DNA of 64,000 bases from Asaia bogorensis (GTDB lineage: Bacteria > Pseudomonadota > Alphaproteobacteria > CACIAM-22H2): the NCBI GenBank assembly GCA_945901855.1, contig CAMDLT010000020.1:2066-66065 (forward strand), written 5' to 3'. The position numbers and the translations under genes were made by a program. How positions within the stretch are numbered: position 1 is the first letter of the stretch; every line of letters starts with the position of its first letter. Below, one piece after another: positions 1,675 through 58,180 of this stretch. The notes below the pieces were generated by a model. That model made no database searches. It was not told the DNA's origin and was given only the letters and a program-made list of their open reading frames with translations.

Positions 1675-2483
1675 CGGGCGCGCGCCGGACGCAAGGGGGT
1701 GGCATATTCGGCCGAGCAGAAGGGGCCGCCCTGGTAAAGCAGCGAAACCTCGTCTTGATTCGCCTTCTTCTCGCCTTCTTCGGCGGCTGCGACGTGGTCG
1801 TCAGACGTGTCTTGGGGCTTGTAGCCTAGGCGAAACGCGTTCGAATTGTCGTACCAGGCGCGTGCGTTGTTTGAAATTCCGTAGACGATTTCGCAGCGAA
1901 TCTCGGGATGTTCGAGGCCGATCGCGATCAGCTGGGCCAAATCGCGGCCGCTGATCCACAGCGACAAGGCACGCCTCGTTTCGGGAACAAACGCGGCATT
2001 GCCGATACGGACATTCAGCGTCTCGACGCCGAATTTGTCGGCGTAGAGCGCCGAAAGCGCCTCGCCCCAGCATTTGCTGAGTCCGTAGCGCGAGTCGGGG
2101 CGGATGTCGGCGCGATGGTCGATCTTTTCGCTGCGCGCATGGAACCCGACCGCGTGGTTCGAGCTGCCAAAGACGATCCGCTTGGTGCCCTGGCGACGCG
2201 CGGCTTCGTAAACATTGTAGGTGCCGACGATGTTTGCCTGAAGAATTTTGTCGAAATCGTATTCGACCGACAGCGCGCCCAAGTGGATGACCCTATCCAT
2301 ACCCGTCATCGCTTTTTCGACCGCAGCCATATCGGAAAGATCGCACGGCATGCTCTCTTCGCCGGGCGCAAGATCGCCGATCGGATTGAGGTCGCTCAAG
2401 CGGAGGGTTTCGAACCGTCCTGCAAACTCGCGGCGCAATCGTCCGCCGATATGGCCCGCTGCGCCGGTCATCAATACCTTCAT
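1671..2483 (-). CDS. udh: uronate dehydrogenase (NAD-dependent, SDR/epimerase fold)
   Basis: 270 aa. N-terminal TGAAGHIGG Rossmann motif and YGLSKCWGE (YxxxK). It is collinear with Pseudomonas/Agrobacterium Udh (..LRLSDL.., ..VHLGA.SVE..F..IL..NI.G.YN.YEAAR..). Confidence 0.85.
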   Translation of the reverse strand: MKVLMTGAAGHIGGRLRREFAGRFETLRLSDLNPIGDLAPGEESMPCDLSDMAAVEKAMTGMDRVIHLGALSVEYDFDKILQANIVGTYNVYEAARRQGTKRIVFGSSNHAVGFHARSEKIDHRADIRPDSRYGLSKCWGEALSALYADKFGVETLNVRIGNAAFVPETRRALSLWISGRDLAQLIAIGLEHPEIRCEIVYGISNNARAWYDNSNAFRLGYKPQDTSDDHVAAAEEGEKKANQDEVSLLYQGGPFCSAEYATPLRPARAR

Positions 2484-2537
2484 GCCGTTCCTCCCCGTGT
2501 TTGCGCGAAACTTTAGCCGGGATCCGAGCGGGGCGGA

Positions 2538-2557
2538 AGCGCTAATATATTAGCGCT
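2538..2557. promoter_or_regulatory. perfect 20-bp palindrome AGCGCTAATATATTAGCGCT in the udh/gntR divergent spacer; candidate GntR-family operator
   Basis: Read directly from the sequence. The reverse complement is identical. It sits midway between the udh start (2483, minus) and the regulator start (2583/2592, plus). It is an AT core within a GC-rich genome. Confidence 0.6.
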
Positions 2558-2582
2558 CGACGATACGGCCCGATCTGCTAGA

Positions 2583-3305
2583 GTGCGCGTCATGGCCGAA
2601 GCCCTCGTCCGCCCGCGCAGCGCCAGATTGCGTTCGCTCCGAAAAGCCGCAGTACCGCGCGCGTTCGAGCAATTGCGCGAAGCGATCGTATCGCTGACTT
2701 TGGCGCCGGGCACGGTACTGTCGCGGACAAAGCTCGCGCGCCAGCTCGGCGTGAGCCAGACGCCCGTCCGCGACGCGCTGATGCGGCTTGCTGCCGAAGG
2801 GCTTGTGGAGGTGTATCCCCAGCATGCCACGGTCGTCAGTCTCATCGACCTGACGGCGGCGCGTGCGGCCCATTTTCTGCGCCGCGCGATCGAGCTCGAA
2901 ATCGTTCGCGAACTTGCGATGTCGCCCGATTCCAAGGTCGTTGCCGAACTGCGCGCGTCGCTTGATCGCCAGCGGCGCATCGCAAAGGCCGGCGAGCTCG
3001 GCGCTTTCGCGCACGAAGACCAGGCATTCCATCGCCGCATGTACGAAGCGCGCCAAGTTTTAGACTTGTGGCATTTGGCACGCCGCCAAAGCGGCCAGAT
3101 CGACCGACTGCGGCGCTTGCATTTGCCGGCCCTTGGCAAGGTGCAGATCATTCTCGACGACCACCAGGCGATCGTCGACGCGATCGCCGAACGCCAGCCC
3201 GAAGTAGCGCAGGCATTCTTGCGAAAGCATCTTTCGGGCACGCTTGCCAAGATCGAAAGCCTGAGCGCGCGCTTTCCCGAGTACATCCGCAAAACGCCCG
3301 ATTGA
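2583..3305 (+). CDS. GntR-family transcriptional regulator (FadR/FCD-type C-terminal domain)
   Basis: 240 aa. The N-terminal winged-HTH pattern (..LREAIVSLTLAPGTVLSRTKLARQLGVSQTPVRDALMRLAAEGLV..) is followed by a helical effector domain. The start could be ATG 2592. Confidence 0.85.
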   Translation: MRVMAEALVRPRSARLRSLRKAAVPRAFEQLREAIVSLTLAPGTVLSRTKLARQLGVSQTPVRDALMRLAAEGLVEVYPQHATVVSLIDLTAARAAHFLRRAIELEIVRELAMSPDSKVVAELRASLDRQRRIAKAGELGAFAHEDQAFHRRMYEARQVLDLWHLARRQSGQIDRLRRLHLPALGKVQIILDDHQAIVDAIAERQPEVAQAFLRKHLSGTLAKIESLSARFPEYIRKTPD

Positions 3306-3379
3306 CACACTGATATATTACAGCCTAAATACAGTTCATTCGAAGCGTCGGAAAGGCGCTCGAGCAACGGGAGGAAACC

Positions 3380-5335
3380 ATGGCCGATATCGAAGACACC
3401 TCTTTCGAAAGCGCCGTTTCACGCCGCCATTTGCTGCAAGGTGCGGCAAGCGTCGCGGTACTGGCGGCCGCGCCGACGCTCGTCGCGGCACAGGCTGCGC
3501 CCAAGGAAGCGCCTGAACTCGCGCGCATGGTTGCCGAGGGACGCCTGCCGCCGCTCGCCCAGCGCCTGCCGCAAAGTCCGCTCGTGATCACGCCGCACGA
3601 AACCGTCGGCCGCTACGGCGGCACGCTTCGCCGCGGTCTGCGCGGTTCGGCAGACCATAATGGCATTCTGCGCATGGTCGGCAACCAGGGCCTGGTGCGC
3701 TGGAACTTGGAATTCACGCAAGTGATGCCGAACGTTGCCGAACGCTGGGAAGTCAATGCGGCCGCGACCGAATTCGTCTTCCATCTGCGCGCGGGCATGA
3801 AATGGTCGGACGGCAAGCCTTTCACCGCCGACGACATCGTTTTCGCCATCGAAGACTGCACCAAAAACTCCGAGCTTTATCGCTCGGTGCCCTCGGTGCT
3901 GACGATTGGCGGCAAGCCCGTCGTGGCTTCGAAGGTCAGCGACACGGCCGTCAAATTCACGTTTGAAGCGCCCTATGCGATGTTCCTTGAGAACCTCGCG
4001 ACGCCGCTTGGCCAGCATCCCACGCTGTTCGCTAAGCATTATTGCAGCCAGTTCCATCCTAAGTACAACACCGGGCTCGACGCGCAAGTGCGCGCCGCCA
4101 ACATGTCGGACTGGCCGACGCTGTTCCGCGCGCGCTGCGGGGACATCGAAATTCCTTCGCGCTGGAGCAACGCCGAAAAGCCCACGCTCGACCCGTGGAC
4201 GATCGCAGAGGCCTACACGGGCGGCGCCACCCGCGTGACGATGCGCCGCAATCCTTATTTCTGGCAGGTCGATACTTCGGGCGCGCAGTTGCCCTATGTT
4301 GACCAGCTGACGATGAACATCTCCCAGGACGTCGAGTCGCTGATGCTCGATACGATTTCGGGCCGTATCGACATCCAGGACCGCCACATCGACTCGCTGC
4401 AGAACAAGCCGACGCTGTCGCAGAACATGCAGCGCGGCGCTTACCGGCTCGTCGAACTGGTCGCCTCCGGCGCGCAGCAATGCATGATCTATCTGAACAT
4501 GACGCACAAAGATCCCGCGATGCGCGCCATGTTCGCCAACAAGGAATTCCGGCAGGCGCTGTCGCTCGGCATCGACCGCAAGGAAATCATCGAGCTGGTC
4601 TATCTGGGCCAGTCGGAGCCCTATCAGACTGGGCCGCGTCCGGGCCATCCCTGGTACCATGAAAAGCTCGCGCGCCAGTTCACGGCCCACGATCCGGCCC
4701 AGGCCAACGCAATCCTCGACCGGCTCGGCTATCGGCGCGGACCCGACGGCATGCGCGTGCGTCCCGACGGACAAAAAGTATTTTTCGGCATCGACGTGAT
4801 CCCGACGCTCTATCCCGACGCGGTCGATACGCTCGAACTCGTCAAGCGTCACTGGAACGTTCTTGGCGTCGATATCAAGGTCAACACGATCGAACGGGCG
4901 CTCTACTACACGCGCGGCGACAACAACGACCACGACGCCGCAACGTGGCCCGGTCCGGGCGGTCTCGATCCGATCCTCGACGCGCGCGACTATTTGGCCC
5001 AGCATCCGCAAGGCTCGCGCTACGCCATTCCGTGGACCCAGTGGTACGTTTCGGGCGGCAAAGAGGGCATCGAACCTCCCGAAAGCCAGAAGCGTCGCAT
5101 GAAGCTGTTTGACGATGCGCGCGCAACACCCGACATCGCCAAGCGCGGCGCCGTCGTCAAGGAACTGCTGGACCTTACTGCCGATGCGTTCGAGACGATC
5201 GGCGTGTGCCTGGCTGTGAATTCGTTCGGCATCGCCAAAAACAACTTGCGCAACGTGCCGCTGAAGATGCCGCAATCCTGGAGCTGGCCCAATCCCGGCC
5301 CGGCCTTGCCGCAGCAGTTCTTCTTCTCGAGCTAG
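3380..5335 (+). CDS. ABC transporter substrate-binding protein, family 5 (Dpp/Opp-type), Tat signal
   Basis: 651 aa. Twin-arginine leader SRRHLLQGAASVAVLAAAP..AQA. Typical family-5 SBP length and motifs, and it precedes two permeases and an ATPase. Confidence 0.85.
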   Translation: MADIEDTSFESAVSRRHLLQGAASVAVLAAAPTLVAAQAAPKEAPELARMVAEGRLPPLAQRLPQSPLVITPHETVGRYGGTLRRGLRGSADHNGILRMVGNQGLVRWNLEFTQVMPNVAERWEVNAAATEFVFHLRAGMKWSDGKPFTADDIVFAIEDCTKNSELYRSVPSVLTIGGKPVVASKVSDTAVKFTFEAPYAMFLENLATPLGQHPTLFAKHYCSQFHPKYNTGLDAQVRAANMSDWPTLFRARCGDIEIPSRWSNAEKPTLDPWTIAEAYTGGATRVTMRRNPYFWQVDTSGAQLPYVDQLTMNISQDVESLMLDTISGRIDIQDRHIDSLQNKPTLSQNMQRGAYRLVELVASGAQQCMIYLNMTHKDPAMRAMFANKEFRQALSLGIDRKEIIELVYLGQSEPYQTGPRPGHPWYHEKLARQFTAHDPAQANAILDRLGYRRGPDGMRVRPDGQKVFFGIDVIPTLYPDAVDTLELVKRHWNVLGVDIKVNTIERALYYTRGDNNDHDAATWPGPGGLDPILDARDYLAQHPQGSRYAIPWTQWYVSGGKEGIEPPESQKRRMKLFDDARATPDIAKRGAVVKELLDLTADAFETIGVCLAVNSFGIAKNNLRNVPLKMPQSWSWPNPGPALPQQFFFSS

Positions 5336-5409
5336 CGCCGACGATCGCGGCCGACTCTCGTGTGCGAGGGTCGGCCGCCTTTCCCCAGGAAAAGGAAACA
5401 GACGCGCCC

Positions 5410-6396
5410 ATGCTGCGTTTCATCGTGTCGCGCCTTTTGTGGATGATCCCGTCGCTTGTGGCGTTGAGCTTTCTATCGTTCGTTCTCATCCAACTGCCGC
5501 CGGGCGATTACGTGACGACCTATATCGCCACGCTCGCCGCGTCGAACGAAGTCGTCGACCAGAACACGGCAGCCGATTTGCGCTCGCGCTTCGGGCTCGA
5601 CCAGCCGATCTATGTCCAGTACTGGAAATGGATCTACGGAATTGTCACGGAAGGAAATTTCGGCCTGAGCTTCGAGTGGCAGCAGCCGGTGTCGGAGCTT
5701 ATTTGGGAGCGCATGACGCTCACGCTGTTGCTGACCGTCTCGACGCTGATTTTGACCTGGGGAATTGCACTGCCGATCGGCGTGTTTTCAGCCGTCAAAA
5801 AATATTCGATCGGCGACTACGTCGCCACTTTTTTCAGTTTTCTGGGCCTTGCCGTTCCGAGCTTCCTGCTCGCGCTCGTGCTGATGTACGTAGCGGCCGT
5901 CCAATTCGGCCAGGAAGTCGGCGGGCTGTTCTCGGAGCCGTACAAGACCGCCCCTTGGAGCTTCGGCAAAGTTGTCGATTTGGCGGCGCATTTGTGGGTG
6001 CCGGTCGTGATCCTGGCGGTGTCGGGCACCGCGAGCCTCATCCGCGTGATGCGGGCAAATATGCTCGACGAACTCAACAAGCCCTATGTGACGACCGCGC
6101 GGGCCAAAGGGCTTTCGGAGTTTGCTTTGTTGGTCAAATACCCGCTGCGCGTCGCGCTCAACCCTTTCATCTCGACGATCGCATGGCTACTGCCCAACCT
6201 CGTGTCGGGGTCGATCATCGTGGCGATCGTCCTCAGCCTGCCAACGGCGGGGCCGATGCTGCTGCAATCGCTGATGAGCCAGGACATGTATCTGGCGGGC
6301 GCGTTCGTGCTGCTGATTTGCGCGTTGACGCTGATGGGTTCGCTTGTCAGCGACATTTTGTTGGCCCTCGTCGATCCGCGCATTCGGTTGGAGTAG
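5410..6396 (+). CDS. ABC transporter permease (DppB/OppB-like)
   Basis: Trimmed from ORF 5206-6396 to ATG 5410 (MLRFIVSRLLWMIPSLVALSFLSF..), the typical N-terminus of this family. It is multi-TM and ends ..LVDPRIRLE. Confidence 0.85.
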   Translation: MLRFIVSRLLWMIPSLVALSFLSFVLIQLPPGDYVTTYIATLAASNEVVDQNTAADLRSRFGLDQPIYVQYWKWIYGIVTEGNFGLSFEWQQPVSELIWERMTLTLLLTVSTLILTWGIALPIGVFSAVKKYSIGDYVATFFSFLGLAVPSFLLALVLMYVAAVQFGQEVGGLFSEPYKTAPWSFGKVVDLAAHLWVPVVILAVSGTASLIRVMRANMLDELNKPYVTTARAKGLSEFALLVKYPLRVALNPFISTIAWLLPNLVSGSIIVAIVLSLPTAGPMLLQSLMSQDMYLAGAFVLLICALTLMGSLVSDILLALVDPRIRLE

Positions 6397-6399
6397 CCA

Positions 6400-7523
6400 A
6401 TGGCAGCGCTTGCAGAAGGTTCGGTCGATACCAAGCAGCTTGCGGTCGCCTCGCAATGGCAGCTTTTGTGGTGGGCGTTCCGTCGTCACCATCTGGCGAT
6501 GATTGGGCTGGTGGTGGTTGCCTTCCTGTATCTGATTGCCGCTATCCCGGGGTTTTTTACGACGAACGATCCGGCGCTCCAAAACGCGCGCGCCGCTTTC
6601 CATCCGCCGCAGTCGATTCACTTCTTCGATACAAGTGCGGACGGCAGTTTCGCGATTCGACCCTATATCCATCCCTACACGCTGCGCCGCGACCCAACGA
6701 CCTTGGCGGCGAACTATATCGAAGACCGCGAACGCAAAATCTATCTGGAGTTTTTCGGCAGAGGCTACGAATACAAATTGTTTGGTCTGTTCACGGCCGA
6801 CCGGCATCTGTTTGCGTCGAGCGATCCTCGCCAGCCTTTGTTTCTGCTCGGCGCAGACCGGCTTGGACGGTGCGTGTTCAGTCGTATCATGCAGGGCGCG
6901 CAGATATCGCTGTCGCTGGGTCTTGTCGGCGTATTTCTGTCGCTCGTGATCGGCGTGGTGCTGGGCGGAATTTCGGGCTATTTCGGCGGCAGATCGGATT
7001 TCGTGATCCAGCGGGTCATCGAATTCATTCTTTCGCTGCCCACGATTCCGATCTGGCTTGCCCTTGCCGCAGCGCTGCCGCAGGACTGGCCCGCGACGAC
7101 GCAGTATTTCATGATCACGCTGATCCTGTCGTTGACGAGCTGGGCGCAACTCGCGCGCGTCGTGCGCGGACGCTTCTTGAGCCTGCGCACCGAAGAGTTC
7201 GTGGTCGCGGCACGCCTGGACGGCGCTTCGGAAGGTCGCGTGATCTTCCGGCACATGCTGCCAAGTTTCATGAGCCACATCATCGCGAGCATTACGCTCG
7301 CGGTTCCTGCCATGATCCTGGCCGAAACTTCGCTCTCGTTTTTGGGTCTGGGGCTGCAGCCGCCGACAATTTCGTGGGGCGTGCTACTGCGCGAGGCGCA
7401 GAATATCCGTTCGATCGCGACGGCGCCGTGGCTGTTTGCGCCGGGCTTTGCCGTCGTCGTCGCGGTAATGGCGCTCAATTTTCTGGGCGACGGCTTGCGC
7501 GATGCGGCGGATCCTTACAACAA

Positions 7524-7527
<4 letters not shown>
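6400..7527 (+). CDS. ABC transporter permease (DppC/OppC-like)
   Basis: 375 aa. It has a long N-terminal periplasmic loop, then the EAA-type region (..AARLDGASEGRVIFRHMLP..) and the ending ..GDGLRDAADPY. Confidence 0.85.
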
Positions 7528-9218
<1,691 letters not shown>

Positions 9219-9234
9219 ACCGGGAGAACGAGAC

Positions 9235-10458
9235 GTGCGCATTGTCGATATCGAGACGTTTTTGATGCAAGTCGACGCGCCCAATCTGCGCGGCTGGGCA
9301 TCCGACGGGTCTTTCGGCACGGGCAAAATGAAGGCGGGCCTGGTCGGCACGCGCAATTGGCTGTTCGTCAAAATCCACACCGACGAAGGCATCACGGGCA
9401 TCGGCGAATGCAGCGGCTGGCCGCGCGTAATCCAGACGGCCGTGCAGGACCTGAAATCGATTTTGGTGGGCGAAGACCCGACGCATATCGAACGGCTGTG
9501 GCAGAAGATGATGAGCGCCATCATGGGTCACGGCATGACCGGTACCGTCGGCGCGGGGGCCATGACCGGCATCGACATGGCGCTGTGGGACATCAAGGGC
9601 AAGGCGCTGAACACGCCTGTATGGAATCTTCTTGGCGGAAAAATTCGCGACAAGATCCGCATCTATGCGCACGCCAACGCGCCTGAGGTCGCACTCGATC
9701 TCAAACGGCGCGGCATCAGCGCGATCAAATGCGGCGGCGTATCGGATCCCGTGCGCAAAGTTGCTGCGCTGCGCGAAGCCATCGGGGACGAGATGGATTT
9801 GATGATCGATCTGCATGGGCCGCCGTGGTTGACGCCTGCCGACGCAGCGCAAGTGGCGCGGGCGCTGGAACCCTACCGTCTGATGTTCGTTGAAGATCCG
9901 ATCGCGCCCGAAAATCTCGACGGCTTCCGGCGCATACGCGATGCCGCCAACGTGACTCTGGCAGCGGGAGAGCGTATGGCAACCGTCTACGGGCTGCGCG
10001 ATCTGATCGAAAAAGATCTGGTCGATATCGTGCAGCCCGATACGGGCCGGGCGGGCGGCATCACGCAGATGAAAAAGATCGCCGCAATGGCCGAAGCGCA
10101 TCACATCATGATGGCCCCGCATTCGGGATCGCTCGGGCCCGTCGCGGAATATGCGGCCCTCCATGTGATGGCGGCCATTCCCAACGCGTTGATTTTGGAA
10201 CGTATCGAAGACGATTGGGCGGGGCGTGCGCAAACCGTGGTTCCCCATCCGGTGCAGGAAAACGGCTTCCTCAAAGTGCCGGACGCGCCCGGTCTGGGCG
10301 TGGACATCAACGAGGAATTCGTCAAGCGCTTCCCCAGCGAATGCAACGTGTCGATTCCGGGCGCAATGAAAAGCGGCGCCTATGCCGAGGGCACTTATGA
10401 CGAGAGCGTCTATGTCCAGACGCGTCTCAAACGCGGCGTCTATTTTCCGAAAGGCTAG
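9235..10458 (+). CDS. enolase-superfamily enzyme (mandelate racemase/acid-sugar dehydratase subgroup), substrate unknown
   Basis: 407 aa with a GTG start after GGGAGA. Motifs GIGEC.., ..IDMALWDIKGKALNTPVWNLLGG.., ..DLHG.., ..FVEDP.., ..GER.., ..DIVQPD...GGIT. Confidence 0.85.
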   Translation: MRIVDIETFLMQVDAPNLRGWASDGSFGTGKMKAGLVGTRNWLFVKIHTDEGITGIGECSGWPRVIQTAVQDLKSILVGEDPTHIERLWQKMMSAIMGHGMTGTVGAGAMTGIDMALWDIKGKALNTPVWNLLGGKIRDKIRIYAHANAPEVALDLKRRGISAIKCGGVSDPVRKVAALREAIGDEMDLMIDLHGPPWLTPADAAQVARALEPYRLMFVEDPIAPENLDGFRRIRDAANVTLAAGERMATVYGLRDLIEKDLVDIVQPDTGRAGGITQMKKIAAMAEAHHIMMAPHSGSLGPVAEYAALHVMAAIPNALILERIEDDWAGRAQTVVPHPVQENGFLKVPDAPGLGVDINEEFVKRFPSECNVSIPGAMKSGAYAEGTYDESVYVQTRLKRGVYFPKG

Positions 10459-10461
10459 GCC

Positions 10462-11184
10462 ATGGCATCCACATATTCGGACGCGGTGCGCGAACAGCTG
10501 TTGGGCGTAAGCACCGCGACCTTGTGCACGGCCTTGTTCAAGCGCGGTCTGCGCAACCAGTTTGTCCAGGATGTGCGCCCGCTCGCATCCGATTTGCCCA
10601 ATATGGTCGGGCCTGCCTACACGCTGCGCTACATCCCCGCGCGCGAAGACTTGAACACCATCGCCGTGTTCCAGGATCGCGCGCACCCGCAGCGCAAGGC
10701 GGTCGAAGAATGTCCGCCCGGTTCCGTGCTGGTTATCGACAGTCGCAAGGATGCGCGCGCAGCGTCGGCGGGCGGAATTCTGGTCTCGCGCTTGATGAAG
10801 CGCGGCGTTGCCGGCGTCGTGACCGATGGCGGCTTTCGCGATTCGCCCGAGATCGCGGCGCTGCCTTTTCCTGCCTACCACCATCGTCCGTCCGCGCCGA
10901 CGAACCTGACGCTGCACCAGGCCGTCGATATCGGCCTGCCGATCGCCTGCGGCGATGCGGCCGTGTGGCCAGGCGACATAATTGTCGGCGATCGCGAGGG
11001 CGTGATCGTGATCCCCGCGCACCTCGCAGCGGAGATCGCCGCCGAGGCTGTCGAGATGACGGCGTTCGAGGATTTTGTGTTCGAAAAGATTCTCGAAGGC
11101 CGCTCGATTATCGGTCTCTATCCGCCGACCGACGACATTTCGAAAACCGATTTTGCGGCCTGGCGCATCGCCAAGAACCGCTAG
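10462..11184 (+). CDS. RraA-like / HMG-CHA aldolase family protein
   Basis: 240 aa. The family pattern ..TATLCTAL.., ..GSVLVID.., ..AGGILVSRLMKRGVAGVVTDGGFRD.., ..GDIIVGDREGVIVIP is recognised by eye. It starts 3 nt after the enolase gene stop. Confidence 0.75.
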   Translation: MASTYSDAVREQLLGVSTATLCTALFKRGLRNQFVQDVRPLASDLPNMVGPAYTLRYIPAREDLNTIAVFQDRAHPQRKAVEECPPGSVLVIDSRKDARAASAGGILVSRLMKRGVAGVVTDGGFRDSPEIAALPFPAYHHRPSAPTNLTLHQAVDIGLPIACGDAAVWPGDIIVGDREGVIVIPAHLAAEIAAEAVEMTAFEDFVFEKILEGRSIIGLYPPTDDISKTDFAAWRIAKNR

Positions 11185-12356
11185 ACGTAGCCCGTGCTGC
11201 CGTCGGGTTTGGTCGGTACCTTGCGCTCCCAGTGGACATATCCGTCGCTCTTCAGCACATCTTCGTCGATTTCGACGCCCCAGCCCGGCCGCGCGGGCCG
11301 CAATTCCAGGTGACCGTCTTTGGGCAGATACGGATCGCGAACATAGGGCGCGCCCGCGGAAGGATCGGCGACTTTGTCGTAGTTCGAGCCATGCGGCAGG
11401 CGGTATTCCAGAATTTTGAAATTCGGCAAAGCCGCGCAGAAATGCAGGTTGACCGCAGTGGCAAGCGGACCCATCGGATTGTGGGGGGCTACCGTCACGT
11501 AGTGCGCTTCGGCCAGGGCTGCGATCTTGCGCATCTCCGACAAGCCGCCGACCACGCAGATATCGGGCTGCACGATGTCGGCGCCGCGCACCTGCAGCAG
11601 GCGCAGAAACTCGAAGCGATTATAGAGGCATTCGCCCGTGGCAAGCGGGCAATCGAGCCGCGCTTTCAGAGCACCCCATGCGTCGATGTTTTCCGGCCGG
11701 ATCGGTTCCTCGAAAAACAGCGGATCGTAGGGAGCGAGCGCGTTGCCAAGCTGCACGGCCTGGATCGGTTCGAAGATTTTGGCGTGCGCGTCGAACGCTA
11801 TTTCGTAGTCGGCGCGAACGGTCTCGCGCAGTTTCGAGAAATAAGCCGCGCTTTCGCGCACGACATCGCCCCAGCGCTGGCGGTGAATGTCGCCGCGATA
11901 GGGGCTGAGCTTGAATGCGGTGAGCCCCCAATCGCCGGCAAGCTGGTCGAACGTGTCGCGCGCGATCAGCGGGTCCGGGGCGGTATAGACCCCCGCATAG
12001 ACGCGTACGCGGTCGCGGACATGGCCGCCCAGCAGCTGGTAGACGGGCACACCCAGCGCCTTGGCCGAAACATCCCACAAGCAATGATCGATCGCCGAAA
12101 TCGCCGCCAGGCCCAAGGCGCCGGGCGGAAACCGGCTCTGTTGCAACAAATAGAGGTTCAGATACTCGATACGTCGCGGGTCTTGGCCCGCCAAAAAGAG
12201 CGCCAGATACTCAAGCAGCGGGATCAAGGCGCGATCGGGGCCGTGATTGTAGCACTCCCCCCATCCGGTGATGCCCTCGTCGGTGTCGATCGCAACCAGT
12301 ACGCGCGGCCGATCCTTGTCGCGTGTCATGAAGGCCCTGAGGCGTTGAATTTTCAT
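11181..12356 (-). CDS. enolase-superfamily enzyme (galactonate-dehydratase-like), substrate unknown
   Basis: Trimmed from the 821-aa ORF to ATG 12356 (MKIQRLRAFMTRDKDRPRVLVAIDTDEGITGWGEC..). Motifs ..AIDHCLWDVSAKALGVPVYQLLGG.., ..FDAH.., ..FFEEP.., ..GE.., ..DIVQPD. Confidence 0.85.
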   Translation of the reverse strand: MKIQRLRAFMTRDKDRPRVLVAIDTDEGITGWGECYNHGPDRALIPLLEYLALFLAGQDPRRIEYLNLYLLQQSRFPPGALGLAAISAIDHCLWDVSAKALGVPVYQLLGGHVRDRVRVYAGVYTAPDPLIARDTFDQLAGDWGLTAFKLSPYRGDIHRQRWGDVVRESAAYFSKLRETVRADYEIAFDAHAKIFEPIQAVQLGNALAPYDPLFFEEPIRPENIDAWGALKARLDCPLATGECLYNRFEFLRLLQVRGADIVQPDICVVGGLSEMRKIAALAEAHYVTVAPHNPMGPLATAVNLHFCAALPNFKILEYRLPHGSNYDKVADPSAGAPYVRDPYLPKDGHLELRPARPGWGVEIDEDVLKSDGYVHWERKVPTKPDGSTGYV

Positions 12357-12431
12357 AAATCGATTTTGCACCGCGCGCGGGCGGAAGGCAACTTCCCGCG
12401 CGCACAGGAACGGGATAATCTTTCTGCAGTC

Positions 12432-13796
12432 ATGCCGTTCTCGCCGCTCGATTCCCAGATCTTTGGCCCGCTTTTTGTGCCCGATGCGATGGTTGCCGTT
12501 TTCGGCGACGACGCTTTGCTGGCAGCGATGCTGCGCGCCGAAGCCGCGCTGGCAAAATGCCAGGCGCGTTTGGGACTTGTCCCGCCAAGTTTGGCAACCG
12601 CGATCGAGGCAATCGCGCCCGCCGCCTTTGACAAGGCGGCGCTGGGGGCCGCGACGGCGCTGGCGGGTGTGCCGACAATCCCCTTCGTGAAGGCGCTGCA
12701 AAAACTGCTGCCTGCCGACCTCGAACCCCATCTTCATCTTGGCGCAACTTCGCAGGACATTCTCGATACCGGCCTTGCGCTGCAGATGACGGTTGCGTTC
12801 GATCTGCTGGCGGCCGATCTGGCGGATTTGCTTGCGGCACTCGTGCGCCGCGCGCGCCGCCATGCGGATATGCCGTGCATCGCGCGCACCTACGGCCAAC
12901 ACGCCGCGCCGATCTCGTTCGGCTTCAAGGTTGCCGTGTGGCTCGACGGCATTTGCGATGCAGCCGCCGAGCTTGCGCATCGCCGCGAGATCACGTGCCG
13001 AGCTCAGCTCGGCGGGCCGGTCGGCACGCTTGCGGCTTTTGGCGACAAAGGTCCTGCGCTGTTGGCCGACTTCGCGGCCGAGCTTGGACTTGGCGTGCCG
13101 ACGATCGCGTGGCACGCCAGCCGCGTCAATTTGGTCGGGACCGCCCAGTGGCTTGCAGTTCTCGCGGGCACATGCGCCAAAATGGCGGGCGATGTCGTGG
13201 CGCTCGCCTCGAGCGAGGTCGGCGAGGCAAGTGAACCGCATGTGCCTGGGCGTGGCGGATCGTCGGCGATGCCGCACAAGCGCAACCCGATCGCTGCCGT
13301 TGCTATTTTGGCGAATGCGCAGGCGGCCGCTGGACTGGCTGCGGGATTGAGCGGCAGCTTGGTCGCGGCGCACGAGCGTCCGGCAGGCGCGTGGCATGCT
13401 GAGTGGCATGCGATCGCATCGCTTTTCGGGTGCGCTGCGGGTGCGCTTGCGCATGCGCGCGCGCTGGCCGAAGGGCTTGCCATCGATCCAGCAGCGATGG
13501 CCCGCAATGTGGATCTGACGCGCGGGCTCGTTTATGCCGACGCGGCAGCCGCGGCGCTGGCGCCGACGCTCGGTCGCAGCGCCGCACATGCTTGCGTCGA
13601 AGCAGCGGCAGACAGCGTTCGGCGGACGGGCACGACGCTGCAGCACGCATTGGCAGCCTCCCAGACGGTGCTTTCGTCCGCGGAACTTGCCGCGATTTTC
13701 GATCCGTCGGCAGCGGTAGCTGCTGCTGCCCGTTGGGTCGAGCCAGTCGCACGACGCGCTGATGCGCTTGCAGCCCGGCTGTGCGTGCGGGCATAG
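12432..13796 (+). CDS. pcaB: 3-carboxy-cis,cis-muconate cycloisomerase
   Basis: Trimmed from the 1090-aa ORF to ATG 12432. It carries the fumarate-lyase superfamily signature GSSAMPHKRNP and a PcaB-like N-terminus (..LHLGATSQDILDT..). It is followed by pcaL and pobA. Confidence 0.85.
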   Translation: MPFSPLDSQIFGPLFVPDAMVAVFGDDALLAAMLRAEAALAKCQARLGLVPPSLATAIEAIAPAAFDKAALGAATALAGVPTIPFVKALQKLLPADLEPHLHLGATSQDILDTGLALQMTVAFDLLAADLADLLAALVRRARRHADMPCIARTYGQHAAPISFGFKVAVWLDGICDAAAELAHRREITCRAQLGGPVGTLAAFGDKGPALLADFAAELGLGVPTIAWHASRVNLVGTAQWLAVLAGTCAKMAGDVVALASSEVGEASEPHVPGRGGSSAMPHKRNPIAAVAILANAQAAAGLAAGLSGSLVAAHERPAGAWHAEWHAIASLFGCAAGALAHARALAEGLAIDPAAMARNVDLTRGLVYADAAAAALAPTLGRSAAHACVEAAADSVRRTGTTLQHALAASQTVLSSAELAAIFDPSAAVAAAARWVEPVARRADALAARLCVRA

Positions 13797-13804
13797 TGCA
13801 AGCC

Positions 13805-14959
13805 ATGCCGATCTTGAAAATCGTCGCGCGTGAAATGTTTTACGACCTGACAGGTCCCGCTCAAGCGCCTGTCATTTTGTTTTCCAACTCTTTGGGCGCT
13901 ACCGTCGAAATGTGGGATGGGGTGGTTCGCCTCCTGGCGCCATTTTATCGCTGCCTGCGTTACGACACGCGCGGTCACGGGCGCTCGCCTGTGCAGCCGG
14001 GGGCTGCGACCATCGCCGATCTTGCCGACGATGTCATAGAACTGCTGGATGCGCTTGGAATCGACCGGGCGCATGTCGTCGGGCTGTCGATGGGCGGCAT
14101 GATCGCGCAATCGCTTGCCGGGCGTTATCCTGCGCGCGTCGATCATGTAGCGTTGCTGGCGACTGCGCCTTCGTTGCCGCCACCGGAGAATTGGTTCGCC
14201 CGCGCGCAGACGGTACGGGCGCAGGGTATTGGCGCCATTGTCGACGCCACGATGCTGCGCTGGTTTTCGCCAGATGCGGACCCGGCACTTGTTGCGATAT
14301 CGGCCGCACAATTCTCAAAAATCGACGGCGAGGGGTACGCGATCGCTTGCGAGGCGATTGCGCGCCTCGATCTGCATGCCAATTTGCCGGCCATCAAGGC
14401 GCCGACGCTTGTTGTGGCAGCGTCGTCCGATCCCGTCACGACCGTCGCGATGGGCCGGGAGATGGCAGCTTCGATTTCCAGTGCACGATTTGCCGAAATC
14501 GACAATGCCGCGCATCTTTTTGCGATCGAGCGGCCAGACGAGACGGCTGCAGTATTGCGCGAATTTCTGCCCGCCGCATCGCGCGCGGAAGATTCCGATT
14601 ACGCCGAAGGCCTTGCCAATCGCAAGGCCGTGCTGGGCGTCGATCACGTGCAACGCTCGCTCCAAAAAGCGGGCGCATTTGGCCAGCCCTGGCAGGAATT
14701 CATCACGCGTCTTGCATGGGGCGAAACTTGGGGCGATGCGACGTTACCGTTCAAAACGCGCTCGCTCGTCACGCTGGCGATGATGATCGCGCTCGGCCGC
14801 GAGGCCGAGTTCAAGCTGCATCTGCGCCCGGCGCTCAAAAATGGCGTAACGCCTGCGGAATTGCGCGCCTTGATGATGCATGCGGCCGTCTATGCGGGCG
14901 TGCCGGCCGTCAACGGTGCGTTTGCGGCCGTGCGCGAAGAATTGGGCGATCTCGTATGA
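13805..14959 (+). CDS. pcaL: bifunctional 3-oxoadipate enol-lactonase / 4-carboxymuconolactone decarboxylase (PcaD-PcaC fusion)
   Basis: The N-terminal alpha/beta hydrolase domain (..VILFSNSLG.., GLSMGG nucleophile elbow) is fused to a C-terminal carboxymuconolactone decarboxylase domain (..FKTRSLVTLAMMIALGREAEFKLHLRPALKNGVTPAELRALMMHAAVYAGVP..). The start could instead be 13781. Confidence 0.85.
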   Translation: MPILKIVAREMFYDLTGPAQAPVILFSNSLGATVEMWDGVVRLLAPFYRCLRYDTRGHGRSPVQPGAATIADLADDVIELLDALGIDRAHVVGLSMGGMIAQSLAGRYPARVDHVALLATAPSLPPPENWFARAQTVRAQGIGAIVDATMLRWFSPDADPALVAISAAQFSKIDGEGYAIACEAIARLDLHANLPAIKAPTLVVAASSDPVTTVAMGREMAASISSARFAEIDNAAHLFAIERPDETAAVLREFLPAASRAEDSDYAEGLANRKAVLGVDHVQRSLQKAGAFGQPWQEFITRLAWGETWGDATLPFKTRSLVTLAMMIALGREAEFKLHLRPALKNGVTPAELRALMMHAAVYAGVPAVNGAFAAVREELGDLV

Positions 14960-16143
14960 GCGTCCAACGCACCCAGGTCGGCATTGTCGGTGCCGGGCCT
15001 GCCGGCTTGCTGCTGTCGCATCTGCTGCATTTGAACGGGATCGCTTCGGTCGTGCTCGAAGACCGGTCGCGTAAATATGCCGAAGAACGCATCCGCGCGG
15101 GCGTGATCGAACAGGGTGTTGCCGATCTACTGGTCGATGCGGGCATCGGTGCGCGCCTGCAGCGCGAGGGGCTGCGCCATACTGGCGTCAAACTTCACTT
15201 CAAGGGTGCAAGCCACCGCATCGATCTGGCCGATCTGACGGGCGGCAAGGCGGTTACGGTCTATGGCCAGCACGAAGTCGTCAAAGACCTGATTGCGGCG
15301 CGCCTCGCAGTCGGCGGCGAAATCCGCTTCGAGGCCAAGGTGACGGCCGTGCGGGAATTTAAAACCGACGCGCCGCAGATCGACTATGTCGAAAACGGTA
15401 CCGCCCAAACGCTGCTTTGCGACTATGTCGCGGGCTGCGACGGTTTTCATGGGCTGTGCCGTCCGGCCGTGCCTGCGGGCGAGTTGCAATTCTTCGATCG
15501 GCAATATCCGTTCGGATGGCTGGGGATTCTGGCCAAAGTGCGGCCTGCGTCCGAGGAACTGGTTTATGCCCGCCACGAAGACGGCTTTGCGCTGCTCTCG
15601 ATGCGATCGAGCGAGATCAGTCGGCTCTATCTGCAGTGCGAACCCGACGACGAAATTGCCAACTGGCCCGAAGCGCGTATCTGGAGCGAGTTGCACCGGC
15701 GCTTGGGAAATGCGGGCGAGCACGCATTGGCGGAGGGGCCGACGCTGCAAAAAGGCATTACGGCGATGCGAAGCTTCGTGACCGAACCGATGCAAAGCGG
15801 GCGTCTGTTCCTGGCCGGCGATGCGGCCCATATCGTGCCGCCGACCGGTGCCAAAGGCATGAATCTGGCGATTTCCGACGTGCGCTTGTTGGCACGCGCG
15901 ATCGAAACGCATGCCAAACGGGGCGATGCGCAACGCCTCGAAGCCTATTCGCAGACGGCGTTGCGGCGTATCTGGAAAGCGCAGCGTTTTTCGTGGTGGA
16001 TGACGTCGCTCTTGCACAAATTCGGCGACGAGACCCCGTTCGACGAACGCCGTCAGTTTGCCGATCTCGACTATCTGGTGGCATCGAAAGCAGCTTTGAC
16101 CAGTTTGGCTGAAAATTATGTCGGTTTGCCTTTCGACGATTGA
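14956..16143 (+). CDS. pobA: 4-hydroxybenzoate 3-monooxygenase
   Basis: ATG 14956 overlaps the pcaL stop (ATGA). FAD motif VGIVGAGPAGLLLSHLL. It has a PobA-like length (395 aa) and is collinear with PobA (..LAGDAAHIVPPTGAKGMNLA..). Confidence 0.9.
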   Translation: MSVQRTQVGIVGAGPAGLLLSHLLHLNGIASVVLEDRSRKYAEERIRAGVIEQGVADLLVDAGIGARLQREGLRHTGVKLHFKGASHRIDLADLTGGKAVTVYGQHEVVKDLIAARLAVGGEIRFEAKVTAVREFKTDAPQIDYVENGTAQTLLCDYVAGCDGFHGLCRPAVPAGELQFFDRQYPFGWLGILAKVRPASEELVYARHEDGFALLSMRSSEISRLYLQCEPDDEIANWPEARIWSELHRRLGNAGEHALAEGPTLQKGITAMRSFVTEPMQSGRLFLAGDAAHIVPPTGAKGMNLAISDVRLLARAIETHAKRGDAQRLEAYSQTALRRIWKAQRFSWWMTSLLHKFGDETPFDERRQFADLDYLVASKAALTSLAENYVGLPFDD

Positions 16144-16996
16144 GCGTCTGCTAGTAGGGGCGGCCATGTGCATGCTTGCGGCGGGGGCGCACGCAAGCGA
16201 GATCACGGTCGATGTCCAATACGAAAGCGCGGCGCTCAAGCGCACGGCACAGTATTCGGTGGTACGGCCGGACAGCTCGAGCGACCCGCTGCCGGTCGTC
16301 TATCTTCTGCACGGACGCGACAGTTCCGCTGCCGAGTGGCTGCGATTGGGCAATGTTGCCGCCACGTTGGACCGGCTGATTGCCGAGCGCCGCATTCCCC
16401 CGCTGATGGTGGTGCTGCCCGATGCGGGCAATGGTTGGTATGTCGACGGCCCTGCGATGGCGATGGAGACGGCCGTTGTGCGCGATCTGGTCGCCGACGT
16501 CGAGCATCGCTACCGTGTGCGAGCGGACCGCGCTGGACGCGCGATCGCTGGCAATTCGATGGGCGGGTTCGGGGCCGTGCGCATCGCCCTTGGTTATCCC
16601 GAGCGCTATGCGGCTGCCGCATCGATGAGCGGCGCCTTCTGGATCCGAATCACGCGCGAAATGGCGATCGACGAGGCGATGGCGGGGCGCTTGACGCGCG
16701 TGTTTTCGGAATCGTTCGGCCAGCCCTTCGATCCGAACTTCTTCGTGTCGCAGTCGCCCGAAGAAATGGCACGAAAGAAGCCGCCGGACGCGCCGCATCC
16801 CGCGCTTTACCTGACCGCGAGCCGCGGCGACCGATTTCGTCTCAACGAAGAGCAGGATACGATGGCGGCCTTGCTGCGCAACCACGGGATCAAGGTTGCC
16901 ACCGAGACAACCGAAGGCGACCACGACTGGGGCACCTGGGCGGCGGCGCTGCCAGACGTGCTTGCATTTTTGGGGCGCAGCTTGGCGTCCAAATAG
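16118..16996 (+). CDS. secreted esterase (esterase D / putative-esterase family alpha/beta hydrolase)
   Basis: 292 aa. Signal-peptide-like N-terminus (..LLVGAAMCMLAAGAHA/SE) and a GNSMGG nucleophile elbow. It overlaps the pobA 3' end by 26 nt if the start is 16118. An alternative start is ATG 16166. Confidence 0.7.
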   Translation: MSVCLSTIERLLVGAAMCMLAAGAHASEITVDVQYESAALKRTAQYSVVRPDSSSDPLPVVYLLHGRDSSAAEWLRLGNVAATLDRLIAERRIPPLMVVLPDAGNGWYVDGPAMAMETAVVRDLVADVEHRYRVRADRAGRAIAGNSMGGFGAVRIALGYPERYAAAASMSGAFWIRITREMAIDEAMAGRLTRVFSESFGQPFDPNFFVSQSPEEMARKKPPDAPHPALYLTASRGDRFRLNEEQDTMAALLRNHGIKVATETTEGDHDWGTWAAALPDVLAFLGRSLASK

Positions 16997-19163: not shown

Positions 19164-20468
19164 TTAGCTGCCCCAAGTCTCGGCGGTCGTCGAGGCGTAC
19201 CAGCCTTCGGCATAGTGGGCTTCCTGCAAGCGGAACTGTACGGCATTGGCGGGCGCACGCGGGCTCACGCCGCCGGCCCCTTGCACAGCGACGATGCCTT
19301 GGATTGTTGGACGATATACGTCTGCAACCGAAATTCCATAGTCCGGCGCGATCAGCGAGTAGCAGGTATTGGCAAAAACAGCTCCCGGCGTCGGCTGGCC
19401 GTTGAGAGCGGCGGCGATCGCTTTGGCGACGAACTTGCCTTGGCTGGAGGCGGCAAAACCGGATTTGGGCATCGCGCCTGCGATCGCCGCATCGCCGATG
19501 ACGTACACGTCTTTGGCGCGTGTCGATTCGAACGTGAAAGGATCGACCGGGCACCAGCCGGCCATTGCGCCCTCGGTGGCAGCGAGCCCAGCATCGCGCG
19601 CGATGCTGCCCGCATATTGCGGCGGTACGATATTGGCGACCGACGCCTTGTGAACCTCGCCGAACTCGGAGGTTAGCGTGAGTTCGGCGGGATCGACGCG
19701 CACGACCTTGCCGTCTTTGCCAAGCGGAACCCATTCGATCATGGCGCCGTATTGGCTTTGCCAGCCGTCCTGGAACAGGCCCTGTTTGGAGAACGCGTCC
19801 TTGGAGTCGAGCGCCAGGATCTTGGAGCGCGGTTTATTTTGTTTCAGATAGTGCGCCACCATCGCGATGCGCTCGTAAGGGCCGGGCGGGCACCTGAACG
19901 GGTTGTTGGGAATCGACATCACGAATGTGCCGCCGTCGGGCATCGCTTCCAACTGGCGACGCAGCAGCACGGTTTGGGTACCTGCCTGCCAGGCGTGTGG
20001 CATGCGCTCAACTGCGGATTGCGTGTACCCTTCGAGGGCACCGAAGCGGATATCGATGCCCGGCGAAAGTACGAGCCGGTCGTAGCGCACGACATTGCCG
20101 CCGCTGGTACGGACGGTTTTCGCGCTCGTATCGATAGCGACCGCGCTTTCGCGGATATGGCGCACGCCATGTTTGCCCGTCAGGGCCGCATAATTGTGCG
20201 TGATATCGGTCATCTGTTTGAAGCCCGATAGCACATAGTTGGAAAATGGGCAGGTCTGGAACTCTGATTTGGGCTCGATCAAGGTAACGGAGAGGCTTGG
20301 GTCTTCGAGGCGCAAAAATTTAGCGGTCGTGGCTCCGCCAAAGCCGCCGCCGACGACAACAACGCGCGCTTTGCCTGCCGGCTCCGATTGGATGGCGCAG
20401 GCCGACAGAGCCGTCGTGGCGAGTACGGAACCTGCAAAGGCGCGACGCGAGAGCATTAATTTGGCCAT
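19164..20468 (-). CDS. fccB: flavocytochrome c sulfide dehydrogenase, flavoprotein subunit (FccB/SoxF-like)
   Basis: Trimmed to ATG 20468 (MAKLMLSRRAFAGSVLATTALSA.., Tat-type leader) after GGGGAGA. FAD motif VVVVGGGFGGATTAKFL, and FccB-like throughout (..NPFRCPPGPYERI..). Confidence 0.85.
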   Translation of the reverse strand: MAKLMLSRRAFAGSVLATTALSACAIQSEPAGKARVVVVGGGFGGATTAKFLRLEDPSLSVTLIEPKSEFQTCPFSNYVLSGFKQMTDITHNYAALTGKHGVRHIRESAVAIDTSAKTVRTSGGNVVRYDRLVLSPGIDIRFGALEGYTQSAVERMPHAWQAGTQTVLLRRQLEAMPDGGTFVMSIPNNPFRCPPGPYERIAMVAHYLKQNKPRSKILALDSKDAFSKQGLFQDGWQSQYGAMIEWVPLGKDGKVVRVDPAELTLTSEFGEVHKASVANIVPPQYAGSIARDAGLAATEGAMAGWCPVDPFTFESTRAKDVYVIGDAAIAGAMPKSGFAASSQGKFVAKAIAAALNGQPTPGAVFANTCYSLIAPDYGISVADVYRPTIQGIVAVQGAGGVSPRAPANAVQFRLQEAHYAEGWYASTTAETWGS

Positions 20469-20482
20469 TTGATTGTCTCCCC

Positions 20483-20803
20483 TCAGCGCCACTTTGCGGC
20501 GATTTCGCGCGCCATGGCTGCAATTTCGTCGTCGCCAAAACCCTTGGCATGGCGATTCATGATTGTGCCCATGCGCCGGTCATTTTTGAAATCGAGCATC
20601 GCTTGGCGCAACGTCGCTTCGTCCTGACCCGCGAGGGCAGGGATGGCGCCTGTTGACCGGCCATTTTGGCCATGGCAGCCCGAACAAGTGGCAATCAACA
20701 CATCGGGCGCAACGGACGATGCGGTTTGAGCAGCGGCCGGGAGCGCGAGGTTCGAGCCAGTCAAAGCGACAAAAAGCGTTGCAATTTTGAGCGCGTGTTT
20801 CAT
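20483..20803 (-). CDS. fccA: monoheme cytochrome c subunit (FccA/SoxE-like)
   Basis: 106 aa with a signal peptide and a single CSGCH heme-binding motif. It lies immediately upstream of fccB, with a 14-nt gap. Confidence 0.8.
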   Translation of the reverse strand: MKHALKIATLFVALTGSNLALPAAAQTASSVAPDVLIATCSGCHGQNGRSTGAIPALAGQDEATLRQAMLDFKNDRRMGTIMNRHAKGFGDDEIAAMAREIAAKWR

Positions 20804-37194: not shown

Positions 37195-37272
37195 GATGAT
37201 CCGACCCGCCTCGGGCGCCAAGCGCGGCGCTCGAGGCGTCGTCGCCCTCGAACGCAAAACGGCATCTTCGAC

Positions 37273-38259: not shown

Positions 38260-38276
38260 TCGGGAAGGAACCTGCA

Positions 38277-39188: not shown

Positions 39189-39196
39189 AGGTGGGC

Positions 39197-58179: not shown

Positions 58180-58180
58180 G

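Follow-up and report, generated by a model that had tools for sequence, protein, structure and literature searches.

A candidate hexuronate uptake and oxidation locus with an FlDet-like RraA-fold protein and a pair of enolase-superfamily enzymes

The known oxidative route for hexuronates runs through uronate dehydrogenase (Udh), an aldarate dehydratase, KdgD and alpha-ketoglutarate semialdehyde (alpha-KGSA) dehydrogenase. Here we analyse a 64,000-nucleotide stretch of Asaia bogorensis contig CAMDLT010000020.1 (the window), in which three adjacent genes at positions 9235-12356 encode two enolase-superfamily proteins of 407 and 391 amino acids (ENO407 and ENO391) and, between them, a protein with the RraA fold. 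We think it fairly probable that these three genes make up the distal end of a conserved locus (412-12356) for the uptake of hexuronic acids and their oxidative, non-phosphorylative breakdown. As we read it, the locus encodes a modified form of this oxidative route, with two enolase-family enzymes whose substrates we infer. Unlike the known route, which is fed by TRAP, TTT or MFS uptake systems, the window has a family-5 (Opp/Dpp-type) importer, together with three non-canonical enolase-superfamily enzymes and an RraA-fold enzyme in the position of KdgD.

The activity that we propose for the RraA-fold protein was published in 2021 for one Flavobacterium alginate-pathway enzyme, FlDet of Flavobacterium sp. 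UMI-01, the sole characterised relative turned up by our literature search (Nishiyama et al. 2021, PMC8563752). Its authors tracked the loss of 2-keto-3-deoxy-hexarate (KDGR) to purify the native enzyme, and the mass of its product was that of alpha-KGSA, corresponding to dehydration and decarboxylation of KDGR (PMC8563752). The enzyme was stimulated by Mg, Co and Ni, and no conversion was seen of 4-deoxy-L-erythro-5-hexoseulose uronate (DEHU), 2-keto-3-deoxy-gluconate (KDG), 2-keto-3-deoxy-6-phosphogluconate (KDPG) or 4-hydroxy-2-oxoglutarate (PMC8563752). The literature searched contained no paper on FlDet-type genes in proteobacterial uronate or aldarate loci or on their pairing with IlvD/Edd dehydratases, and the GapMind paper has nothing on RraA or on kdgD replacements.

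In the pathway that we propose, a family-5 ABC importer with an SPH1118-like binding protein would take in a uronate or short uronide, and Udh would oxidise the uronate to an aldarolactone, which may open to the aldarate spontaneously or through a lactonase encoded outside the window's locus. The GudD-like protein, ENO407 and ENO391 would then dehydrate the aldarate or aldarates, or cycloisomerise the lactone, to 2-keto-3-deoxy-hexarate. The RraA-fold protein, translationally coupled to ENO407 and bearing a putative Mg-binding Asp/Glu pair and enolate-stabilising Arg, would eliminate the 4-hydroxyl group and decarboxylate this intermediate to alpha-KGSA, which an aldehyde dehydrogenase encoded elsewhere would convert to alpha-ketoglutarate. 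The import, Udh and RraA-fold steps are predicted from close homology to characterised proteins, and the enolase-superfamily step from its context; we likewise infer which stereoisomer the RraA-fold protein uses and which sugar is imported.

The RraA-fold protein and its probable chemistry

The RraA-fold gene (10462-11184, plus strand) encodes 240 amino acids (Pfam RraA-like, 3.2e-33), and its ATG lies exactly 3 nt past the TAG stop codon of ENO407. Pairwise alignment with the FlDet sequence, taken from Supplementary Fig. 8 of PMC8563752, gave 63% identity over 236 amino acids with zero gaps. The two proteins also behave alike against curated models. Both pass NF006093 (PRK08245; named 'hypothetical protein'; cut-off 208 bits), with 344 bits for the window protein and 341 for FlDet, and both fail the HMG/CHA aldolase models NF006731 (83 and 90 bits; cut-off 179) and TIGR02798 (63 and 78 bits; cut-off 304.5) as well as the RraA model NF006875 (47 and 40 bits; cut-off 136). 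They are similar in length (237 amino acids in FlDet), share an R-D pair, a C-terminal Glu and a 'GLYPPT' tail, and are each placed after an enzyme that yields, or in the window would yield, 2-keto-3-deoxy-hexarate. FlDet, however, belongs to a Bacteroidota alginate/DEHU pathway in which the substrate comes from an oxidoreductase and the neighbouring gene encodes alpha-KGSA dehydrogenase, whereas the window protein is alphaproteobacterial, has an enolase-superfamily enzyme upstream and no aldehyde dehydrogenase nearby, and carries Gly rather than Asp at position 105.

A two-sequence alignment was scanned against a one-genome-per-species collection, which confirmed at least 505 loci; 80 of these were listed, their genes called and their proteins clustered. 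Gene calling recovered the RraA-fold gene itself in 74 of them, and the neighbourhood counts given below refer to these 74. In HMG/CHA aldolases, which have the same RraA-like fold, Arg123 is essential, and Asp124 and Glu199 bind the metal (PMC5065237). R126, D127 and E203 of the window protein align with these residues and are invariant in the 80 family members listed, so that the loss of aldolase metal- and substrate-binding residues, which the original prediction had named as telling against its proposal, is not what we observe. Because these three residues are conserved, the machinery for metal-assisted enolisation of an alpha-keto acid is predicted to be kept, and this would fit beta-elimination with decarboxylation equally well as retro-aldol cleavage. 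The motifs alone cannot choose between the two chemistries; by analogy, the assayed relative can, and FlDet is a non-aldolase.

The original prediction had joined a dehydratase to an RraA-fold aldolase in a two-step cleavage module. Under such a scheme the protein would be a class-II (HMG/CHA-type) pyruvate aldolase, an analogue of GarL, that splits the product of ENO407 into pyruvate and an aldehyde, for example tartronate semialdehyde. The conserved Arg-Asp pair and C-terminal Glu would suit this activity, and one metagenome-assembled genome (MAG) encodes a 78%-identical relative of ENO391 beside an HpcH/HpaI aldolase, so that nature does have an aldolase route for what ENO391 makes; this neighbour is not assignable to GarL. 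We regard the scheme as unlikely. The nearest characterised homologue leaves KDG, KDPG and 4-hydroxy-2-oxoglutarate uncleaved, the scores against both aldolase models lie far under their cut-offs, and the match to the aldolase LigK/PcmE (PDB 3NOJ) is partial and weak (57 bits). Furthermore, the equivalent of Asp102 (position 105) is variable across the family, being Gly in the window protein, G, S, A or N elsewhere and Asp only in FlDet among the 80 members listed; a protocatechuate 4,5-cleavage or gallate context is lacking; and, in the 74 loci, tartronate-semialdehyde reductase and glycerate kinase are absent from the recurrent neighbour families while aldehyde dehydrogenases are present. 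Of the two chemistries, retro-aldol cleavage is less well supported than dehydration with decarboxylation, and the window protein is probably a 2-keto-3-deoxy-hexarate (5-keto-4-deoxyglucarate) dehydratase/decarboxylase giving alpha-KGSA, not an aldolase. It would then share with KdgD both the proposed reaction and the position in the pathway, but differ from it in being a metal-dependent protein of the RraA alpha-beta-beta-alpha fold; KdgD (5-dehydro-4-deoxyglucarate dehydratase, of the Udh-GudD/GarD-KdgD route) is a DHDPS-family TIM barrel with a Schiff-base lysine.

Genomic context of the RraA-fold family

The part of the predicted two-step module that stood is the pairing of a dehydratase with the RraA-fold protein, as opposed to the aldolase step. 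An IlvD/Edd dehydratase lies within six genes of the RraA-fold gene in 58 of the 74 loci, nearly always immediately upstream, and passes the NCBIfam model 'L-arabinonate dehydratase' (1060 bits; cut-off 882), and ENO407 precedes the RraA-fold gene in four Rhodospirillales loci. A TctC-type carboxylate-binding protein is encoded nearby in 39 loci, and a GntR regulator that clusters by sequence with the one in the window, and is mostly transcribed divergently, in 26. Less frequent neighbours are the L-talarate/galactarate dehydratase equivalog (684 bits; cut-off 500), aldehyde dehydrogenases and IclR-SGL fusions, at seven loci each, and the SGL lactonase (three loci); the aldehyde dehydrogenases were not identifiable as alpha-KGSA dehydrogenase (355 bits; cut-off 770). 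GntR-type GguR regulators and TctC transporters are a known signature of aldarate regulons, in which GguR responds to 5-keto-4-deoxy-glucarate (PMC5507952; PMC11705089), and by analogy the GntR and TctC neighbours of the family match the GguR/TctC regulons so described. Together with the IlvD/Edd pairing, these neighbours suggest a family-wide alpha-KGSA-forming role that annotation ('hypothetical', 'RraA regulator') has missed.

Individual loci combine these elements in several ways. The arrangement of transporter, ENO407 and RraA-fold gene found in the window recurs in four Rhodospirillales MAGs (L004, L005, L007 and L008). A Bosea MAG (L058) carries an operon of IlvD/Edd, Udh and RraA-fold genes, and in an uncultured betaproteobacterium (L066) genes for a GntR regulator, IlvD/Edd and the RraA-fold protein adjoin those for a GudD-like protein, mutarotase, ENO391, ENO407, ATPase and permease. 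In three further Bosea loci (L047, L069 and L081; approximately 4.5-10.7 kb), genes for a PdxA-like protein, TctC, TctB, TctA and a DHDPS-family protein are followed by the RraA-fold gene.

The window itself encodes an IlvD/Edd paralogue (51406-53148, minus strand) that scores 883.8 bits against the 'L-arabinonate dehydratase' cut-off of 882. It clusters with the usual partner of FlDet-type genes, yet lies 40 kb off, beside genes for an M24 peptidase and a CoA-transferase.

Existing gene names and the immediate downstream neighbours would lead to other functions. In IMG, proteins that are identical or nearly so carry the name 'regulator of RNase E activity RraA', and a set of aromatic-catabolism genes (pcaB, pcaD/C, pobA) begins 76 nt past ENO391 and, in L007, directly follows the RraA-fold gene on the same strand, so that the protein could be conceived of either as an RNase E regulator or as an HMG/CHA aldolase serving these aromatic genes. 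We hold both to be very improbable and rejected them. The score against the RraA equivalog is sub-cut-off, as are those against the aldolase models, and the protein is longer (240 amino acids, against about 160 for RraA) with a conserved C-terminal extension. The adjacent aromatic genes are those of 3,4-cleavage, the beta-ketoadipate branch, for which no aldolase is required. In addition, the RraA-fold gene appears to be translationally coupled to ENO407, and across the 74 loci no aromatic-catabolism family is found among the recurrent neighbours, which instead comprise sugar-acid dehydratases, regulators and binding proteins.

The enolase-superfamily pair

Our gene map combines a codon-position gene call with Pfam and NCBIfam scans of the window, the coordinates of ENO391 being corrected by hand; a promoter and terminator scan gave nothing beyond shuffled expectation. 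ENO407 (9235-10458, plus strand; Pfam MR_MLE_N 1.3e-22, MR_MLE_C 6e-62) starts with GTG, closely preceded by a Shine-Dalgarno-like GGGAGA motif, 16 nt past the stop codon of the ABC ATPase gene. ENO391 (11181-12356, minus strand; MR_MLE_N 1.6e-17, MR_MLE_C 1.1e-55) is convergent with the RraA-fold gene, and the stop codons of the two overlap in a common CTAG. The mechanical open reading frame of ENO391 is open for 821 amino acids (11181-13646, minus strand), antisense to pcaB, and public gene calls on the same or identical contigs over-extend it too (products of 686, 481 and 432 amino acids). Because the 391-residue protein aligns from residue 1 with PDB 4JN7, the start predicted at 12356 is the one we take as true. 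These gene calls and their translations bear out the original prediction with respect to the three open reading frames (their positions, lengths and strands), the 3-nt spacing and the presence of a 651-residue SBP_bac_5 protein. They fit less well with its picture of two enolase genes bracketing an RraA-like gene, which holds in this lineage; elsewhere the two are rather a conserved adjacent pair.

In enzymes of the mandelate racemase subgroup, three carboxylate metal ligands sit at the ends of strands 3, 4 and 5, and a His-Asp dyad is carried on strands 7 and 6. ENO407 and ENO391 had been assigned to this subgroup as clearly different members, and we concur: they are 36% identical to each other, both exceed the Pfam cut-offs for the capping (MR_MLE_N) and barrel (MR_MLE_C) domains, and both have complete catalytic sets. 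In ENO407 these residues are K165, D192, H194, E220, E246, D269 and H296, of which D192, E220, E246, D269 and H296 are invariant in an alignment with ENO391, orthologues and a representative of the L-talarate/galactarate dehydratases (TalrD/GalrD). The first metal ligand is the Asp of a D-x-H motif, with the His two residues further on (D192-x-H194 in ENO407, D188-x-H190 in ENO391), and the second Lys of the K-x-K motif is missing in both proteins, unlike the GalrD/TalrD representative, which has D-x-N and K-x-K. The D-x-H motif without the second K-x-K Lys is the acid/base arrangement of D-galactonate dehydratase. Thus, as far as can be read from the residues, ENO407 and ENO391 carry the galactonate-dehydratase-type catalytic set of D-x-H, Glu, Glu, Asp and His, yet they stay outside the curated DgoD family: the galactonate dehydratase model NF010624 is the best NCBIfam match for both, at 281 bits for ENO407 and 264 for ENO391 against a cut-off of 311. 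Both fall far under the cut-offs of the L-talarate/galactarate (NF047820), ManD, rhamnonate, arabinonate and glucarate dehydratase equivalogs, and neither enters a curated NCBIfam isofunctional family, which supports the original prediction.

Solved structures offer a close relative for one of the two. The best PDB match of ENO407 is distant (207 bits), with no close named relative, and the Agrobacterium tumefaciens structures 4GGB and 4HPN are distant from both proteins (E of about 1e-45 to 1e-48). ENO391, in comparison, aligns over its full length with 4JN7/4JN8 (662 bits, E 3.9e-198) and almost certainly belongs to the same isofunctional family. 4JN7/4JN8 is presumably an Agrobacterium radiobacter K84 protein solved by the Enzyme Function Initiative and labelled 'putative galactarate dehydratase', and our literature search found no published function for 4JN7. 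The source names of ENO391 relatives are generic, bar one 'galactarate dehydratase [soil metagenome]', and were not counted as evidence.

It is the neighbourhood that narrows the substrates. Besides MAGs of Telmatospirillum-like bacteria and Rhodospirillaceae, the genomes that conserve the cluster are those of Bosea, Alsobacter, Bradyrhizobium, Roseomonas and an uncultured betaproteobacterium, and ENO407 follows the transporter ATPase gene in all seven related loci examined that carry it. In Alsobacter and Bosea, the transporter and ENO407 are directly followed by a 400-residue gene product 77% identical to ENO391, with a mutarotase gene upstream of the transporter and divergent genes for Udh, a GudD-like protein and an IclR-SGL protein; mutarotase and lactonase genes are often part of the cluster in other genomes as well. 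ENO407 and ENO391 are therewith a conserved pair of the transporter operon, in Alpha- and Betaproteobacteria alike. In the window's lineage the pair is separated by the RraA-fold gene, with ENO391 transcribed from the other strand. Roseomonas has the ENO391 orthologue, transporter and lactonase together, and Bradyrhizobium has the ENO391 orthologue alone after the transporter, together with a KdgD-like DHDPS-family gene and a GntR regulator; a KdgD-like gene in place of the RraA-fold gene is the pattern expected of non-orthologous replacement. This context suggests that ENO407 and ENO391, like GalrD (GalrD/TalrD, GalrD-II, GalrD-III) and Gci, make 2-keto-3-deoxy-hexarate, ENO407 presumably from an aldarate or aldarolactone and ENO391 from an aldarate.

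A different assignment would follow if ENO407 and the RraA-fold protein acted on an aldonate, as a galactonate-, arabinonate- or xylonate-type dehydratase and a Weimberg-type 2-keto-3-deoxy-aldonate dehydratase that forms alpha-KGSA without decarboxylation, with Udh and the GudD-like protein constituting a separate module. This would accommodate the galactonate dehydratase model as the best match of both enolase members, the 'L-arabinonate dehydratase' that precedes the family in so many loci, the GFO/IDH/MocA sugar dehydrogenase encoded after the RraA-fold gene in L004 and L005, the GH51 arabinofuranosidase near it in L041 and the SGL lactonase neighbours. Nevertheless, in different orders the genes for Udh and the GudD-like protein accompany those for the transporter and the ENO407/ENO391 pair, the binding protein retains the carboxylate-binding Arg and Asn of the galacturonate subsite (see below), and the only demonstrated substrate of FlDet is a hexarate. 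We therefore judge action on an aldonate to be improbable and continue with the uronate/aldarate pathway.

Importer, uronate dehydrogenase and neighbouring genes

Two genes on the minus strand open the locus. The first (412-1674) encodes a 420-residue enolase-superfamily protein (Pfam MR_MLE_N and MR_MLE_C) that had been named gudD but is only GudD-like: it fails the GudD equivalog test (TIGR03247, 224 bits; cut-off 828.7), and its best structures, 4IT1 (487 bits) and 3VDG (456 bits), are described as 'putative glucarate dehydratase' and belong to an uncharacterised group. It is 73% identical to the product of the Alsobacter cluster gene. The second (1671-2483) encodes a Udh-like short-chain dehydrogenase of 270 residues (Pfam Epimerase), which aligns over residues 2-255 with the uronate dehydrogenase structures 3RFT, 3RFV and 3RFX (224 bits, E 2.5e-65), presumably those of the Agrobacterium tumefaciens enzyme, and with 3AY3 (227 bits); no curated NCBIfam Udh model matched it. 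On the plus strand, a GntR/FCD-family regulator of 240 residues (2583-3305; Pfam GntR and FCD) clusters with the regulators that are divergent from IlvD/Edd-RraA operons at the 26 loci mentioned above.

The importer follows on the same strand. It comprises the family-5 solute-binding protein (3380-5335, 651 residues; Pfam SBP_bac_5), permease 1 (5362-6396, with an uncertain start, the mechanical open reading frame beginning at 5206; Pfam BPD_transp_1_N and BPD_transp_1; orthologues of 328 residues), permease 2 (6400-7527, 375 residues; OppC_N and BPD_transp_1) and a fused double ATPase (7524-9218; two ABC_tran domains and oligo_HPY). The ATPase start was taken from the codon-position call, which gives about 564 residues; a public gene call on the source contig also gives 564, and orthologues have 575-576.

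The binding protein is a full-length homologue of SPH1118 from Sphingomonas sp. A1 (PDB 7VER; 611 bits, E 2e-182), with which it shares the SBP-5 family and an Opp/Dpp-type transporter. SPH1118 binds polygalacturonate and unsaturated trigalacturonate, and galacturonate only weakly; a table of the contacts that it makes with its ligands has been published (PMC9314435). When these contacts are read onto the alignment, six of the seven residues around the reducing-end galacturonic acid (GalUA) are kept, namely N53, R57, E216, R466, R496 and W594, which correspond to N94, R98, E257, R506, R536 and W634, while E505 is replaced by Gly. Among the contacts to the second and third sugars, N324, R438, D483 and F592 are replaced by G, P, W and Q, respectively, and S298 and R294 are kept. 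Because the reducing-end GalUA residues are kept and those for the second and third sugars partly replaced, the importer probably recognises a uronate carboxylate-pyranose unit. Conversely, a preference for oligomers or polymers like that of SPH1118 is unlikely to be shared, since Asn324, Arg438, Asp483, Glu505 and Phe592 have been replaced. Taken together, the binding protein, Udh and the GudD-like gene make hexuronates and aldarates the indicated substrates, and the earlier statement that the substrate cannot be inferred from sequence was too pessimistic.

Several observations weigh against the proposed pathway. A tblastn search found no aldehyde dehydrogenase gene anywhere in the 64-kb window. 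FlDet was assayed on the DEHU-derived erythro isomer only (PMC8563752), and it is the threo isomer that comes from glucarate and galactarate. Given that the commonest partner of the RraA-fold family is an 'L-arabinonate dehydratase', the family may act on 2-keto-3-deoxy-aldonates. The Bradyrhizobium DHDPS-family gene is not identifiable as KdgD (143 bits; cut-off 278), and the DHDPS-family gene beside the RraA-fold gene in some Bosea loci argues against KdgD having simply been replaced. Since the binding protein has mostly lost the SPH1118 contacts to the second and third sugars, the imported ligand is uncertain. Finally, the locus carries as many as three enolase-superfamily enzymes; these could serve different uronates or aldarates, or divide lactone and free acid between them.

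FlDet and the conserved neighbourhoods indicate that the family performs the KdgD-type step of oxidative uronate and aldarate catabolism, and possibly of arabinonate catabolism too. A broader proposal, which we put forward tentatively and at somewhat less than even confidence, is that FlDet-type RraA-fold proteins are a widespread, so far unrecognised third family for the alpha-KGSA-forming step, beside the DHDPS-type KdgD and 2-keto-3-deoxy-L-arabinonate (L-KDA) dehydratase and the FAH-type 2-keto-3-deoxy-xylonate (KDX) dehydratase, paired in Alpha- and Betaproteobacteria with IlvD/Edd or enolase-superfamily dehydratases, and that ENO407 and ENO391 represent two new isofunctional families, with aldarate dehydratase or aldarolactone cycloisomerase activity, that are dedicated to uronate import by a family-5 ABC transporter. 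The family is common, with at least 505 matches at one genome per species, and is now annotated either as 'hypothetical protein' or as a 'regulator of RNase E'; when pathways of soil and freshwater Proteobacteria are reconstructed, a gap labelled 'missing kdgD' is frequent, and a corrected annotation would fill it. For function discovery in the enolase superfamily, the two enolase genes offer well-defined targets, being a conserved pair of which one has a solved structure and for which a class of candidate substrates is at hand.

Beyond the locus, the abutting beta-ketoadipate genes lie on the plus strand and encode a PcaB-like protein (12432-13796), a PcaD-PcaC fusion (approximately 13805-14959), a PobA-like flavoprotein (approximately 14956-16143) and an esterase (16118-16996), an order that is also seen in the MAGs L007 and L008. 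Unrelated sulfur-oxidation genes on the minus strand encode the flavoprotein of a flavocytochrome c sulfide dehydrogenase (19164-20492) and a Sulf_transp membrane protein (22646-23749). At 49065-50258 and 56521-59869, genes for a family-III CoA-transferase, a formate-tetrahydrofolate ligase and a thiamine pyrophosphate (TPP) enzyme of the size of oxalyl-CoA decarboxylase may form an oxalate/formyl-CoA module. The window also contains two more sets of family-5 (Opp/Dpp-type) ABC transporter genes, at 35587-41256 and 43967-47390.

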